Assembly (NCBI GenBank): GCA_046075565.1
Contig: JBJTQJ010000031.1
Location: forward strand, 29,493 to 93,492
Reading direction: 5' to 3'
From: Verrucomicrobiales bacterium
GTDB taxonomy: Bacteria; Verrucomicrobiota; Verrucomicrobiia; Verrucomicrobiales; SLCJ01
DNA: 64,000 nt
Shown: positions 50,727 to 62,925 of the stretch, piece by piece
How positions within the stretch are numbered: the first letter of the stretch is position 1
How the letters are laid out: each line of letters starts with the position of its first letter
The notes under the pieces: generated by a model
The model's input: the letters and a program-made list of their open reading frames with translations, nothing else
Told to the model about the DNA's origin: nothing
Databases searched by the model: none
Position numbers and translations under genes: made by a program

Positions 50727-51299
50727 ATGAAGTCCCGCAAGTCCACGCCCCCAGCTCCTCCCGCCAATCGGGATGAGTTTCTCGCCTCTCTCATGGCGCG
50801 TTTCGATCGACATGGCGCCCGCCATCGTGGCATCACTTGGGCGAGTGTTCTCTCCCGACTCGATGCCCATCCGGAAAAATGTGCGGCACTGCTCGCCATG
50901 GAAAATTCCGGCGGCGAACCTGACGTGACCGGTCGCGATCCAAAATCCGGTGCCATCATTTTCACCGATTGTTCACCCGAGACCCCCAAAGGACGCGTGA
51001 GCCTTTGTTACGATCGCGCGGCCCTCGAATCCCGCAAGGAACACAAGCCCCGCACCTCCGCCATGGAAATGGCCGCCGCCATGGGCGTGAAAATTTTGAC
51101 CGAATCCGAATACCATGCTCTGCAGGAACTCGGCGAATTCGACACCAAGACATCGAGCTGGGTTCTCACTCCACCCGCCATCCGTGATCTCGACGGTGCC
51201 CTCTTCGGCGACCGCCGCTACGGGCGTGTTTTCACTTACCACAATGGCGCCCAAGCCTACTTCGCGGCCCGCGGCTTCCGGGCCAAGCTGGTTGTGTGA
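50727..51299 (+). CDS. DUF4256 domain protein
   Basis: MENSGGEPDV, DCSPETPKGR.SLCYD, FDTKTSSW, YHNGAQAYFAARGFR. Confidence 0.85.
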   Translation: MKSRKSTPPAPPANRDEFLASLMARFDRHGARHRGITWASVLSRLDAHPEKCAALLAMENSGGEPDVTGRDPKSGAIIFTDCSPETPKGRVSLCYDRAALESRKEHKPRTSAMEMAAAMGVKILTESEYHALQELGEFDTKTSSWVLTPPAIRDLDGALFGDRRYGRVFTYHNGAQAYFAARGFRAKLVV

Positions 51300-57128: not shown

Positions 57129-57596
57129 TTACCAACCCAGGATCCTCGCGATGGCGGTGCGGAGGGCGGTTTCGAGGATGGCCGCTTCGGCGTGGGTCAC
57201 AGGAATGGACACCTTTTTCACCGATTGGTCGGCAGCCTCCTGACGGGAGATAGTCATGAACCAAGGGGCGCGTTCGGGATCATCGCGGCGCGTCAGCTCG
57301 AAGCTGCTGTTCGCCTTCTCGGACTGATGGAAAAGTTTGGCCTGGGTCTGGCGGCCTTGCAGGGTGGCGAGCACCGGACCGAGGTCGGCCAGCGTCCACT
57401 TCATGGTGATCTTGTTTTCCCAGTCGAATTGTTTCTCCCCGGATTGCAGCGCGGCATCGAGGAAAAGCGACTTCTTCGCCCGGTTGATGCCGAAGCGAAT
57501 GACCCCGCCTTTGCCGCGGGAATTCGGTTTGTAGATGGCGTATTCCGGCTGGCGTTCGGTCGCGCGGGCAAATGGCTCGAGATTGGCGTCTTTCAT
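57129..57596 (-). CDS. Whirly-like putative ssDNA-binding protein
   Basis: YAIYK, GEKQFDWENK, KLFH and IPVTHAEAAIL...ILGW, collinear with plant Whirly domain motifs. Confidence 0.75.
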   Translation of the reverse strand: MKDANLEPFARATERQPEYAIYKPNSRGKGGVIRFGINRAKKSLFLDAALQSGEKQFDWENKITMKWTLADLGPVLATLQGRQTQAKLFHQSEKANSSFELTRRDDPERAPWFMTISRQEAADQSVKKVSIPVTHAEAAILETALRTAIARILGW

Positions 57597-57702
57597 GGTG
57601 TTCTGATGATTTATTGTTACAATGAACACATTAAAAGCCAAAAAGCCGGCTGCGGTCAACAAAAATTTCGTGCACCAGATCACATTTTCCGCCGGCCCAC
57701 CC

Positions 57703-59685
57703 TCAAGCGAGGGCGCGGGCGGCGGCGGCGACATTGGCGGCGGTCATGCCGAGGTCGGCCATGACGGTGTCGCCAGGGGCGCTCTTGCCGAAGCGGTCGA
57801 TGGCGACGACGGCTCCTTGCAGGCCGACGTATTTCCACCAGAGCGCGCTCACCCCGGCTTCCACGGCGACCCGGCGGGTGCAGGCGGCGGGGAGGATGCT
57901 CTCCTTGTAATCGGCGGCCTGGCGGTCGAAGCGCTCCATCGACGGCATGGAAACCACGCGGGTGCCCGGTCCGAGGTCGGCGGTGGCCTTGAGGGCGTGC
58001 TGGAGTTCCGAGCCGGTCCCGATGAGAATGGTTTCCAGCGCGGCGGTCTCTTTTTTCACGATATAGGCCCCGCGAAGTGTGCCCTCGCGGCGTTCGCGGG
58101 CGGTCATTCCCGGGATAGCAGGCACCTTCTGGCGCGAAAGCAACAAGACGGTCGGTCGGTTGGTATTGGAGATGGCGGCGGCGAAAGCCCCGGCGGTTTC
58201 TTCCTGATCGGCCGGGCGGATGACATCGAGTCCGGGAATGACCCGGAGGCCCGAGCAGGTTTCCACTGGCTGGTGGGTGGGGCCGTCTTCGCCGACCCCG
58301 ACCGAGTCGTGGGTGAAAATGTAGGTCACCGGCAGGTGGGACAGGGCGGCGAGGCGGATGCTCGGGCGGAGGTAGTCGGCAAAAACCGCGAAGGTCGCCC
58401 CGCTGGCCCGGAAGAGTCCGTCGTAGGCAAAGCCGTTCAGCATGGCGCCCATGGCGTGTTCCCGAATCCCGAACCAGATATTGCGACCTGTCGGTTTGTT
58501 GGCGCTGTAGTCGCCCTCGCCCTTGATGTAGTTTTTGGTGGATCCGAAAAGGTCGGCGGAACCGGTAACAAAATGCGGCACCATTTTGGCCACATGCTGG
58601 ATCACGTCACCACCGGCGGACCGGGTGGCATCGGCGTAGTCGGGGGCGAATTCGGGGATTTCCCCGATCATGTCGGTGGGCACCACACCGGCCACGGCTT
58701 CGACGAGCTGTTGGGCGAGGCCGGGGTTGGCGGCCGCCCAGGCCTTGTGGGTTTGCTGCCACGCGGCATGGGCTTTGGCCAGTTCGGCGGCATGGGCGGC
58801 GAAGGCCGCGCGCACTTCCGGCGAAACATAGAAGTGTTCCTCCGGCAGCCCGAGGCCGGCGCGGGCGGTGGCGGAGAATTTCGCCCCGCCTTCGCCGTGG
58901 GCTTTGGCCGTGCCGGCCACTTCCGGAATGCCACGCCCGATTTCCGTGCGGGCGATGATCAGTTTCGGTTTGCCGTTGTCGCTCGCTTTCGCGGACACGA
59001 GGGCGGATTCCAAGGCGGCGAAATCGTGACCATCCACGGTTTTCACCTCCCATCCGAGGGCGGAATAGACGGCGGCCGTGTCTTCGGATTGGGTGACCTC
59101 GGCCATGGCGTCGAGGGTGACGTCGTTGGAGTCGTAAATCAGGATCAGATTGTCGAGGGCGGCGTGGGCGGCGAAAGCGACGGCCTCGCGGGCCACCCCT
59201 TCTTGCAAACATCCGTCACCGGCCAGGGCGAAAATGTGCTGGTCGAAAATGACGTGCTCGGCGGTGTTGTAACGGGCGGCGGCCATTTTCGCGGAAAGCG
59301 CGTAGCCGACGGCATTGCCCACGCCTTGGCCGAGCGGACCGGTGGTGGCTTCCACGCCGGCGGTCATGAAATTCTCCGGGTGACCGGGGGTGATCGAACC
59401 GTTTTTGCGGAAGGCCTTCACATCCTCGAGTGAAACCGCATAGCCGGAAAGGTGCAGCCAGGCATAAAGGAACATCGACCCGTGGCCGGCGGACAGGATA
59501 AAGCGGTCGCGGTTCAACCATTTCGGGGCGGTGGGGTCGTAGCGGAGCACCTTTCCGAAAAGCACCGCTCCCACTTCGGCGCAGCCGAGCGGAAGCCCGA
59601 GGTGACCGGAAGAGCAGGCGTGGACGGCATCAATGGCCAGGCCCCGGGCCTGGTTGGCGGCTTGTTGAAGAAGATTCGTTTCCAT
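57703..59685 (-). CDS. tkt: Transketolase
   Basis: [54 protein letters not shown]. Confidence 0.97.
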
Positions 59686-59853: not shown

Positions 59854-59928
59854 TGCCCGGTGGTGTAATTGGCAACACAGCAGATTTTGGTTCTGTTATT
59901 TCAGGTTCGAGTCCTGGCCGGGTAGCCA
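59854..59928 (+). tRNA. tRNA-Gln (anticodon TTG)
   Basis: Acceptor TGCCCGG/CCGGGTA, anticodon arm GCAGA-TTTTGGT-TCTGT, T-loop GGTTCGAGTCC, encoded CCA. Confidence 0.96.
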
Positions 59929-60234: not shown

Positions 60235-60810
60235 TTAAAGTTCGCTGAGCACTGATACCAGCAGGGCGCAGGTGCGGGAGAGTCCTTGGGTTCGCAGGGT
60301 CGCGAGATATTCGGTGGCCGTGCGCGGGGGCTGTTTCAAGCTGAGGCGTGCCTCGCGAAGGATAGCGATCAACTTATCACGGTGGCTTTCGAGTAGTGCT
60401 GCGAGCAAATCGTCCGGGGTGATCGCACTGAGGCCGTGAATGGTGAGCTCGGCATTGGGGAAGTCCCTGAGGTTCCACGTTAGGATCATGTTCGCCTTCG
60501 CCTCGATTGCGGCGGCAAGCACGTGGCGGTCATCCCTATCGGGCAAACGAAGGTTTTTGATCCTCTTCTCATAACCCGTCACGAGGCACCCCTCGGCATG
60601 AAGGTCCATCAGTTCCCGCGTCCGTTGGAGACGCTCGCTGGACAGGTCCGGTCGATCACGGAGCACCGCCTCGATCCACTCGTTGTGGATGGCACGCGTC
60701 CAGCGGGCACGGATCATGCCGTGCAGGGAGAGTCTCATCAACACATCCCTCAATGCCGCCGGGTAAAGCGTGCAGGCATCGAGGATGACAATGGGCGGAC
60801 CATGTGGCAT
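60235..60810 (-). CDS. PIN domain protein (putative toxin)
   Basis: VILDACTLYP..LRD, LPDRDDRHVLAAAI, ILTWNLRDFP. Confidence 0.9.
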   Translation of the reverse strand: MPHGPPIVILDACTLYPAALRDVLMRLSLHGMIRARWTRAIHNEWIEAVLRDRPDLSSERLQRTRELMDLHAEGCLVTGYEKRIKNLRLPDRDDRHVLAAAIEAKANMILTWNLRDFPNAELTIHGLSAITPDDLLAALLESHRDKLIAILREARLSLKQPPRTATEYLATLRTQGLSRTCALLVSVLSEL

Positions 60811-61238
60811 CAGTAACCGAGTTGGAGTCGCTGGCCCTCCGCGGCAAGTTCGTCGAGCGCCTTTTTCCTGGCGGCGTGCTGGCACTCCCGGTAAGCTACC
60901 ACATCCTTCACGAAGGCCCGGCGATGGGTGCCCACCCGGCGGCTGGGGATTTGCCCCTCGTCAAACAACCGGGCGGCAAACGGCCGGGAAACACCCAGCA
61001 TCTCTGCTGCTTCCCGTGGCGAAATCTCTTCCTCGCCACTCATCACCGTAACGGAGCGTCCTTCGGCGAGATGCTCCACCAACTCGGTGACAAGCCCAAG
61101 TGCTGGCTTCGGCAGGGAAAGAGGCCTTTTGCCCACCGTGATCGTCGCGGCGGTGGAGCCGTGCAATGCCTCCAGCAGGCTACGTAGCGCTCCCCGATCA
61201 CTAGGGCTGAGGCGGGATGGTTCAAGTGTTATGCTCAT
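60810..61238 (-). CDS. Excisionase-like helix-turn-helix protein (putative antitoxin)
   Basis: EISPREAAEMLGVSRP..LFDEGQIP..RVGTHRR; overlaps the PIN gene start. Confidence 0.9.
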   Translation of the reverse strand: MSITLEPSRLSPSDRGALRSLLEALHGSTAATITVGKRPLSLPKPALGLVTELVEHLAEGRSVTVMSGEEEISPREAAEMLGVSRPFAARLFDEGQIPSRRVGTHRRAFVKDVVAYRECQHAARKKALDELAAEGQRLQLGY

Positions 61239-61575
61239 GGTAGGCCAACTTACCCCTTATCTGCAATATCCGCAACAAATGAAATAAATGATTCTTATCC
61301 CCTGACCCCTGGCACCTGATCTCGCGTCTTTTCCGGGACCATTTTCGCGGATATCGTAAAATGGTCCGGACTATTCCGAGGTCCGCGTTCAGAAAGTAAG
61401 AATTTTTCCGGTCTTGCGTCTGGTGTCTTTGAGCGAAGCGGTCTTGCATCTTTTCCCCGTGCCCACCGCCGACGGCCTTTCTGTCCGCAAAGAATGGGCC
61501 AAGGAAGGACACGATTCCTGCACCAGAACAAAAATGAGAATTCGCCTTCGACCTTTTCGGTGCTATCTTTGCCCC

Positions 61576-61791
61576 ATGACTGAGTTGGAGAAACTGCGCT
61601 CGCTTCCTGTGGCCGAAAGGCTGGAGTTGGTGGAAGACCTCTGGGACTCAATCGCCGGGGAATCAAATTCCGTCGGGCTGTCCGCCGCACACCTCGCCGA
61701 ACTCGACCGGAGACTTGATCGCATTGAAGAATCTCCGTCGGAGGGCACATCTTGGACTACCCTCAGGGAGAGAATTCTGGCCTCACTCTGA
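61576..61791 (+). CDS. Putative addiction module antitoxin (TIGR02574-like)
   Basis: LPVAERLELVEDLWDSI..ELDRRL..SW. Confidence 0.88.
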   Translation: MTELEKLRSLPVAERLELVEDLWDSIAGESNSVGLSAAHLAELDRRLDRIEESPSEGTSWTTLRERILASL

Positions 61792-61794
61792 CCC

Positions 61795-61818
61795 ATGCCC
61801 GTCATTCTTCGGCCGGAA
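61795..61818 (+). pseudogene. N-terminal stub of a RelE/ParE toxin
   Basis: ATG 3 nt after the antitoxin stop reading MPVILRPE, then running into a REP palindrome. Confidence 0.45.
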
Positions 61819-62090
61819 CCCCGTTGGGGTTCACGAGCAAGGTGCCTTGCCATCGCGGACGCAAGATTTCGAAATGAGGGTTGACCCGTTATTCGATTGC
61901 CGTCAATCACAAACGGATTGCGCCAAAATCTGTGCCAATGACCAACAATTCTTGTCTTCCCCAATCCCAACGGGATTGTTCCCCAAAGCCCGGGGTTGTC
62001 CCGCCACGCGGGGCTACCCCGGGATCCGAATAAAAGAAGATGAAAACCCTGCAAGGGTTTTGTCTCATGGCGACGAAGCAGAACCCCTTT
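61816..62090. repeat. Cluster of REP-like palindromes
   Basis: GAACCCCGTTGGGGTTC, CAATCCCAACGGGATTG, CCCGGGGT..ACCCCGGG, AAAACCCTGCAAGGGTTTT. Confidence 0.7.
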
Positions 62091-62192
62091 AGCGCCGATA
62101 GCTAACCGGTAGCTCCGGGAACAATGCTACTTTCAGACCGGTGAAGGAAGGCGAGCGCTTGCCAATTGCCCTTTCTAAGGGTAGGCTGGGTC

Positions 62193-62447
62193 ATGCCGAT
62201 CACTCTGCAAGTGTCTGATGCCATCCAGCAGGCCTTACGCGTTCCCGAGCCGGAACGACAGTCCCGGCTGATGGTTGAGCTTGCTTGCGCCCTTTACCAG
62301 CGCGAAATCCTTACCTTCGGGAAGGCATCAGAACTCGCGGAATTGAGCCAGTTCCGATTCGGACAAGCCCTGGCCGAACGGTCAATCGCCAGACACTATT
62401 CTGATGCCGATTTAGATGAGGATCTGGCCTATGCCGGCGGTCAGTAA
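62193..62447 (+). CDS. UPF0175 family protein (putative antitoxin)
   Basis: ELACALYQREILTFGKASELA..HYSDADLDEDL. Confidence 0.88.
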   Translation: MPITLQVSDAIQQALRVPEPERQSRLMVELACALYQREILTFGKASELAELSQFRFGQALAERSIARHYSDADLDEDLAYAGGQ

Positions 62448-62925
62448 TACCTCCCCCATCAGCAATCTCGCCATGATTGGCAGATTGCAGATCCTTCGGG
62501 GTCAATTGGAAACCGTAGTGATTCCCAATGCGGTCTTTTTGGAACTTGAACGGATTGAGAACTTGAAAGCCAAGGAGGCAATCGCCTCCGCCTTGGCCGA
62601 TGGTTGGCTCCAAGTTAAAGCACTCGAGGATCAAACGCTCGTGAATGTGCTTTGCACCTCCCTTGATGCAGGCGAGTCCGAGGCGATCGCTTTGGCCAGA
62701 ACGATGGGCGCGAATCTCTTGGTCATGGACGAGTCAGCCGGTCGGGCCATGGCACGAAGCCTCGGATTGCAGGTGACCGGAACACTCGGTGTCCTCCTGA
62801 AAGCCAAACGTGCCGGTCATTTGCCTTCACTCGGGGATGAAATTGACCGGCTGGTTGGTGACGCCGGATTTTTTGTGTCGGCACGAGTCCGTCAATTCTT
62901 CATCGAGGCGGCGGGTGAAGCCTGA
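62431..62925 (+). CDS. DUF3368 / PIN-like protein (putative toxin)
   Basis: VSNTSPI, LDAGESEAIALA, MDE..GR..A, VTGTLGVLLKAK. Confidence 0.9.
   Translation: MPAVSNTSPISNLAMIGRLQILRGQLETVVIPNAVFLELERIENLKAKEAIASALADGWLQVKALEDQTLVNVLCTSLDAGESEAIALARTMGANLLVMDESAGRAMARSLGLQVTGTLGVLLKAKRAGHLPSLGDEIDRLVGDAGFFVSARVRQFFIEAAGEA

Follow-up and report, generated by a model that had tools for sequence, protein, structure and literature searches.

A 64,000-nucleotide stretch of DNA from a Verrucomicrobiales bacterium (hereafter the window) encodes a true bacterial Whirly protein in minimal form, 155 residues long and with the Whirly fold. An operator upstream of its gene is conserved among orthologues and recurs in front of SOS genes in the same genome. 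We consider it probable that the product is a LexA-repressed, tetrameric protein of the DNA-damage response that binds single-stranded DNA (ssDNA). Its ssDNA binding, its induction by damage, and its role in repair are inferred from this kinship and from the operator.

Translation of the minus strand of the window gave an ORF of 155 codons and a stop, and the strings cited in the original prediction (YAIYK, LFLDAALQSGEKQFDWENKITMKWTLADLG, AKLFH, VSIPVTHAEAAILETALRTAIARILGW, and KPNSRGKGGVI) were all present in it (Table 1). An alternative 201-aa ORF starting at 57734 runs into the end of the transketolase gene; orthologue lengths gave this reading no support, the best 120 relatives being mostly 154–164 aa long. 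Conservation within the clade starts at about residue 17, and residues 1–16 of the AF2 model were of low confidence. The protein is basic, with 24 Lys and Arg residues against 18 Asp and Glu residues. Its gene is single-copy and chromosomal in a genome of 3.9 Mb (129 contigs), which also encodes a canonical SSB. The datasets listed as containing the sequence were freshwater metagenomes, with no RNA dataset among them.

Table 1. Features of the window and related loci (positions refer to the window unless a handle precedes them).
Feature	Position	Strand	Remarks
Whirly-family gene	57129..57596	-	155 aa, pI 9.7, 17.5 kDa
LexA-box-like palindrome TGTTCATTGTAACA	57615..57628	-	9/10 arm bases of TGTTC-N4-GAACA
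Terminator-like hairpin and T-run	57636..57651	-	between transketolase stop (57703) and LexA box
Perfect operator sites, PriA-adjacent loci			44/50
Perfect operator sites, other loci without detected priA			19/35
Perfect operator sites, loci of genus g5			0/25
Site before ssb, own genome	C59:16042		perfect
Site before dnaE2-like gene, own genome	C105:24192		perfect
Site before lexA, own genome	C105:46424		9/10
Site before recA, own genome	C100:60257		9/10
Site before Y-family polymerase gene, own genome	C80:14529		9/10
Remaining two perfect sites, own genome	C84:6789, C109:25572		
KGKAAL-clade loci	L123:3335-3814, L126:7968-8474, L128:5289-5786		metagenome contigs
KGKAAL-clade proteins			P0256, P0284, P0287, P0288, P0290, P0291, P0293, P0294
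Ribonucleotide reductase large subunit gene	L126:10876-15408		1510 aa
Viral Whirly-family gene	L130:7965-8471		beside dUTPase, ribonucleotide reductase, and dCMP deaminase genes
Viral Whirly-family gene	L132:8013-8498		IMG/VR locus
tRNA-Gln gene	59854-59928		
Small PIN-domain, HTH_17, and DUF3368 genes	60235-62925		follow the tRNA-Gln gene
DUF4256 protein gene	50727-51299		Pfam 255 bits; adjoins gene for LON substrate-binding-domain protein

The homology to plant Whirly proteins that the original prediction had claimed was backed by the family profile, by sequence matches in the PDB, by the fold, and by a tetramer model. The HMMER search against Pfam, run as proposed there, matched the Whirly family (PF08536) with an E-value of 3.5e-9 and 37 bits, above the curated cut-off of 23, and aligned residues 43–143 of the protein to positions 32–135 of the 136 in the profile. 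Searching all PDB sequences with phmmer retrieved AtWHY2, p24, two StWhy2 entries, AtWHY1, and AtWHY3 (E-values 2.2e-6 to 7.1e-5), and the sole further match listed was a capsid protein at an E-value of 1.4. The PUR and PC4 families of Pfam gave no match at E-values up to 10, the NCBIfam search gave none, and no family of the PHROG and PADLOC libraries matched at E-values up to 0.01. The resemblance to Whirly is thus far above chance.

Structural prediction from a 98-row alignment yielded an AF2 model with a pLDDT of 93.7 and a pTM of 0.84, in which strands and helices follow the order E-E-E-E-H-E-E-E-E-H. The comparison of this model with Whirly structures by Foldseek, also proposed beforehand, ranked MRP1/2 and the plant Whirlies at the top of the PDB (E-values 2e-8 to 1.8e-7), with TM scores of 0.64–0.72 to WHY1, WHY2, WHY3, and p24. 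VIA-align superposed the model on AtWHY2 with a Z score of 18.5 and an rmsd of 1.8 Å over 130 residues; for the entries 4kop, 4koo, 3n1h, 1l3a, and 4koq together, the Z scores were 16.9–18.5 and the rmsd values 1.8–2.1 Å over 130–136 residues. Plant chains other than AtWHY2 scored 16.9–17.9, MRP1/2 16.4–16.9, PURA 8.3–8.8, and SsgA/B 7–8.

In the tetramer modeling put forward in the original prediction, the four-copy model reached an ipSAE of 0.92 in each of three runs, while the highest-scoring of three controls stayed at 0.00; the partner pLDDT was 86, and at least 86% of contacts were common to the runs. In calibration, 20 of 30 solved pairs and one of 23 single chains attained the mark used. 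The modeled interface consists of helices 69–86 and 134–155, which form the core as in Whirly. The protein is thus predicted in silico to be a helix-cored homotetramer, albeit with a score that may stem from resemblance to solved Whirly tetramers.

The bacterial protein shares several features with the plant Whirlies (p24/PBF-2, WHY1, WHY2, and WHY3): the PF08536 domain above the cut-off, the fold (Z 17–18.5, rmsd ~2 Å, identity 21–24%), the motifs [FY]DW-x-NK, [LF][FY]H, and terminal GW, a predicted helix-cored tetramer, and a link to the DNA-damage response. Plant members carry an organelle-targeting peptide and a disordered acidic/aromatic C-terminal tail, whereas the bacterial protein has only 17 residues before strand 1 and ends in GW. 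Unlike the plant genes, its gene lies on a bacterial chromosome under a predicted LexA operator.

A further difference concerns the KGKAAL motif. As had been predicted, this motif is absent and KPNSRGKGGVI stands in its place; in a MAFFT alignment, the β1–β2 hairpin (YKPNSRGKGGVI) was ~5 residues longer than in plants. HMMER did not align this N-terminal hairpin region, its match starting at residue 43. A passage of a 2022 review presents KGKAAL as a hallmark of higher plants, reports it missing from algal and Marchantia members, and does not regard it as defining for the wider family (PMC9070903). For potato WHY2, the second lysine of the motif is described as needed for 24-mer assembly (PMC3245945). 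Position 29 is variable within the bacterial clade, and this lysine therefore has no conserved counterpart.

Among other proteins of related fold, trypanosome MRP1/MRP2 resemble the bacterial protein in fold and in the whirligig type of tetramer (Foldseek E-value 2e-8), but they share 14% identity with it, were not matched in the PDB sequence search, and form an RNA-binding heterotetramer rather than the homotetramer predicted here. The Whirly-type fold also occurs in phage and bacterial proteins. Jumbo-phage ChmC is described as a Whirly-fold homotetramer that binds single-stranded nucleic acid and prefers RNA (PMC11077065), and in Shedu defence nucleases, a related fold in the N-terminal domain is described as a sensor (bioRxiv 10.1101/2023.08.10.552793). 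We set these two apart by their descriptions, according to which both were assigned to the fold by structure alone and the Shedu domain is a single dimerizing repeat, whereas the window protein is a sequence-level member of PF08536. PUR-alpha and Borrelia Bpur, of the PC4-like superfamily, have distantly related β-β-β-β-α repeats; the match to PURA (TM 0.37, Z 8.8) was much weaker than that to Whirly (TM 0.72, Z 18.5), and Borrelia Pur-alpha reached a Z score of 4.9 in VIA-align.

Upstream of the Whirly gene, the palindrome TGTTCATTGTAACA spans positions -32 to -19 relative to the ATG, leaving 18 bases between box and start codon. Its consensus, TGTTC-N4-GAACA, is reportedly the LexA motif that Erill and colleagues published for Verrucomicrobia in 2016; a text search of the literature for the motif found nothing. 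In 63 of the 112 orthologous loci, the best site within 200 nt upstream was perfect, and in seven more, the window included, it matched 9/10 arm bases. Perfect sites were concentrated at this position, 63 of the 69 found in 843 kb of locus DNA lying within the 200-nt upstream windows. The operator arms were conserved across orthologues, and the spacer was variable.

The organism's own genome contained four perfect sites (2.1 expected), including one 25 nt before ssb and one 11 nt before the gene for an 816-aa homologue of DNA polymerase III alpha that we read as dnaE2-like. Additionally, 9/10 sites were found ~24 nt before lexA, ~158 nt before recA, and 102 nt before the gene for a Y-family polymerase. 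Because the motif precedes these genes, we regard it as the probable LexA box and the five genes as the putative SOS regulon of the organism. Sites matching at least 9/10 bases were not enriched genome-wide (56 against ~72 expected), so the box in the window counts because of where it lies and because orthologues share it; with 56 such sites in 3.9 Mb, the chance of such a site in a given 60-nt stretch is ~1/1000.

The box belongs to the Whirly gene and not to priA, which adjoins it in many loci, because the priA of the own genome has no box (best 7/10) and the relocated Whirly gene keeps one. Distant Verrucomicrobiota homologues had no LexA box either, their best sites matching 7/10 bases, and together with genus g5 (Table 1), they indicate that SOS control is limited by lineage. 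The conserved operator thus makes the Whirly gene a putative member of the SOS regulon in some lineages of the Verrucomicrobiales. The operator would support a role in ssDNA handling after damage, and a nucleic-acid-binding role in DNA metabolism fits with it. The terminator-like hairpin upstream of the box might hint at a separate transcription unit for the Whirly gene, although the region held two such sites against 1.5 expected in shuffles, which is not above chance.

The Whirly protein was found in 94 of 401 sampled Verrucomicrobiales genomes, among them 82 of 320 high-quality ones, and was not found in the other 307 of the 401 searched; the gene is dispensable in many relatives. Occurrence was patchy by genus (0/46, 40/82, and 9/54), with 0/38 in one family and two of four genomes in the family of the host. 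Orthologues from several families of the order were ~70% identical. A sample of the whole phylum (401 genomes) searched with the Pfam Whirly model gave seven matching genomes, four of them above the cut-off. Four loci of other orders in the phylum (L003, L004, L006, and L007) encode a second, divergent Whirly subfamily of ~200 aa, in which FYHPN replaces IYKPN and both the terminal GW and the LexA box are missing.

Wider searches showed the clade to be large. A word-indexed search returned 1032 clusters at E-values up to 0.001; the 120 matches listed all carried PF08536. Those with a name were almost all called 'hypothetical protein', one being called 'Whirly transcription factor', and the organisms given were Verrucomicrobia or Verrucomicrobiota bacterium, Luteolibacter, and Prosthecobacter vanneervenii. 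When 1.84 billion representatives were searched exhaustively with HMMER, 304 clusters emerged at the same threshold; of the 118 diverse relatives then scanned, 76 matched PF08536, again at E-values up to 0.001. Scanning one genome per species confirmed 160 loci, and the 80 examined were all from Verrucomicrobiales, including Haloferula chungangensis. The ESM Atlas held Whirly-named clusters for Verrucomicrobiota and one all-viral cluster. The original prediction had warned that a populated, described clade would lessen the novelty. The clade is indeed well populated and automatically labeled 'Whirly' in databases, but we found no publication on it.

Genes surrounding the Whirly gene in the window are housekeeping genes: transketolase (tkt), encoded upstream in the same orientation, a GT2 glycosyltransferase gene in convergent orientation, rpoN, pnp, and rpsO. 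None of tkt, GT2, rpoN, OYE, and DUF4256 recurred beside any of 80 orthologous loci, and a URO-D neighbor recurred once, at 30% identity. A divergent gene for the PriA helicase adjoined the Whirly gene in 50 of 112 loci by tblastn, and in 42 of the 61 loci with enough flank. This adjacency was limited to one lineage, the priA of the own genome lying on another contig; in another genus, the neighbors were sulfatase-like and P450-like genes, as judged by eye from translations. We therefore discarded the gene neighborhood of the window as a guide to function. Synteny was stable within genera and the Whirly gene tree grouped by host lineage; being lineage-specific, synteny is merely a hint to function.

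Relatives of the protein also occurred in viral DNA. In IMG/VR, twelve viral contigs (L130–L141, at most 181 kb long) encode proteins with 26–32% identity to the query, among genes for dUTPase, ribonucleotide reductase, dCMP deaminase, HNH, and glycosyltransferase; some viral Whirly-family genes elsewhere had HNH or resolvase-like neighbors. The best structural match in BFVD was a Caudovirales protein labeled 'Whirly transcription factor'. A tblastn search of the 50,697 phage records of GenBank found no match for the query or for P0288. The latter belongs to a clade of ~160-aa proteins with exact YKGKAAL, FYHD, and PRILGW (Table 1). The metagenome loci of this clade have small ORFs running in one direction, a GC content of 34–51%, genes for ribonucleotide reductase and HNH endonuclease, and members of PHROG families 388, 27338, and 1818. 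They look like phage DNA; no phage structural genes were seen in the stretches examined, and the patterns of the clade were not found in IMG/VR.

Two candidates of other kinds came up in these searches. P0208, a protein of 3494 aa, has seven stretches that match query residues 89–151, but no Pfam family, and was rejected as a probable compositional or helical-repeat match. In the ribonucleotide reductase large subunit encoded on L126, the reductase matches are split between residues 16–292 and 656–853, and helicase-like, terminase-like, and unknown-function PHROG matches overlap or follow the gap between the two, which suggests intein-like insertions.

The profile of the most plant-like short proteins reached green-algal Whirlies of Nannochloris, Auxenochlorella, and Prototheca. 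In quick, unrooted maximum-likelihood trees, whose eukaryotes were these green-algal proteins without land plants, the algal clade (SH-aLRT 97–100) was nested in a group of short proteins (90–97) and adjoined, with a support of 81–90, the clade reading IIYKGKAALQF...FYHD...PRILGW, no other non-eukaryotic group in these trees lying closer to the algal Whirlies. The query clade was one of several other branches. The phylogeny suggested in the original prediction thus placed the algal sequences, but it lacked land plants and did not put the query clade nearest to the algae. The relevance to the origin of the plant family that had been claimed for the gene is accordingly only indirect, because the phage-like KGKAAL clade is nearer to the algal proteins. 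Phage-like donors have been proposed for other organelle replication proteins. It is possible, although we hold it as a tentative and rather doubtful scenario, that Whirly did not arise in plants but is an old phage and bacterial ssDNA-binding family linked to DNA damage and replication, that green plants obtained theirs from a phage-like donor, and that the LexA-controlled accessory to RecA or PriA in Verrucomicrobiales, by influencing the repair of breaks and stalled forks, does a job of the ancestral type.

As we envisage its function, the protein would form a homotetramer with two helices of each subunit at the core and the β-sheets radiating outward, and would bind ssDNA without sequence preference, as plant Whirlies do. 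LexA would repress the gene while DNA is undamaged; upon damage, its expression would rise together with that of recA, ssb, and the error-prone polymerase genes. Alongside the canonical SSB, the protein might then assist RecA-dependent repair or the restart of replication by coating or organizing ssDNA where DNA is broken or forks have stalled. Plant Whirlies are described as tetrameric ssDNA binders that protect against agents causing double-strand breaks (PMC3245945) and, in a preprint, as stimulating RecA strand exchange (bioRxiv 10.64898/2026.10.24.761589). The ssb gene of the own genome carries a perfect copy of the operator of the Whirly gene, and both proteins would act on ssDNA after damage, although SSB has an OB fold unrelated to Whirly and the Whirly gene is accessory. 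To our knowledge, SSB is universal and essential.

Kinship to MRP1/MRP2 and ChmC raises the alternative of a mainly RNA-binding protein, acting as an RNA chaperone or mRNA organizer. Judged by Foldseek E-values, MRP1/MRP2 match the model as well as the plant Whirlies do, and their Z scores come close; ChmC, a homotetramer of the same fold, is described as preferring RNA (PMC11077065). We nevertheless think this alternative unlikely, since kinship at the sequence level is to plant Whirly only, the MRP chains superpose less closely (14% identity, rmsd 2.6–4.5 Å against 1.8–2.1 Å for plant chains), and both the LexA operator and the DNA-metabolism neighbors of the viral homologues indicate DNA. 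Cereal WHIRLY1 and p24/PBF-2 have been proposed to act in the nucleoid or like transcription factors, and a comparable protein that compacts DNA or regulates it would agree with the small size and basic character (pI 9.7); in one account, plant WHIRLY1 serves as a nucleoid architect (PMC9070903). Such a role is quite improbable for a gene with the patchy, accessory distribution seen here (94/401 genomes, and 40/82 in one genus), which is unlike that of a core nucleoid protein; moreover, the lysine of KGKAAL used in 24-mers has no conserved counterpart at the variable position 29, and LexA repression suggests low basal expression.

The viral relatives, at 26–32% identity on the twelve IMG/VR contigs of up to 181 kb, the phage-like clade in metagenomes, the Caudovirales protein that was the best BFVD match, and the patchy host distribution would all suit a domesticated phage gene that still has a phage-related task, for instance excluding invading ssDNA or sensing it, and not one in host repair; Shedu nucleases are described as sensing through a related fold (bioRxiv 10.1101/2023.08.10.552793). 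Several observations make this reading very improbable: no PADLOC or PHROG family and none of the 50,697 GenBank phage records matched, the gene sits among housekeeping genes of the window (tkt, rpoN, pnp, and rpsO), synteny is stable within genera with a gene tree that follows host lineage, and SOS control together with recA and ssb fits host repair. An ssDNA-binding protein of the damage response thus remains our preferred reading.

Whirlies are called plant-specific or unique to plants in the passages concerned of a 2022 review (PMC9070903), a 2019 review, and an October 2026 preprint (bioRxiv 10.64898/2026.10.24.761589), and the Whirly-type members named in the relevant part of a review of PC4-like proteins are from plants and trypanosomes only. 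In the literature to October 2026, supplements aside, we found no published description of bacterial members. Nor did we find a bacterial description linking Whirly with LexA or SOS, although the regulon tables of Erill et al. (2016) may list the gene as hypothetical. The bacterial and phage Whirly family is therefore visible in databases and apparently undescribed in print, and the conserved LexA operator of the bacterial gene is the result added here. If our reading of function is true, an ssDNA binder without an OB fold joins a bacterial SOS regulon. A bacterial branch under the SOS repressor would offer a tractable system, with cultured carriers that include Haloferula chungangensis and Prosthecobacter vanneervenii, for asking how Whirly tetramers act at damaged DNA and whether they cooperate with RecA or PriA. 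With phage-borne relatives, including one clade with the exact KGKAAL motif, it also opens the origin of the plant family to phylogenetic testing.

Two further loci of the window are listed in Table 1. One encodes a DUF4256 protein next to a LON substrate-binding-domain protein. The other, where small genes for PIN-domain, HTH_17, and DUF3368 proteins come after the tRNA-Gln gene, may be a toxin–antitoxin cluster or the edge of an element integrated at the tRNA.
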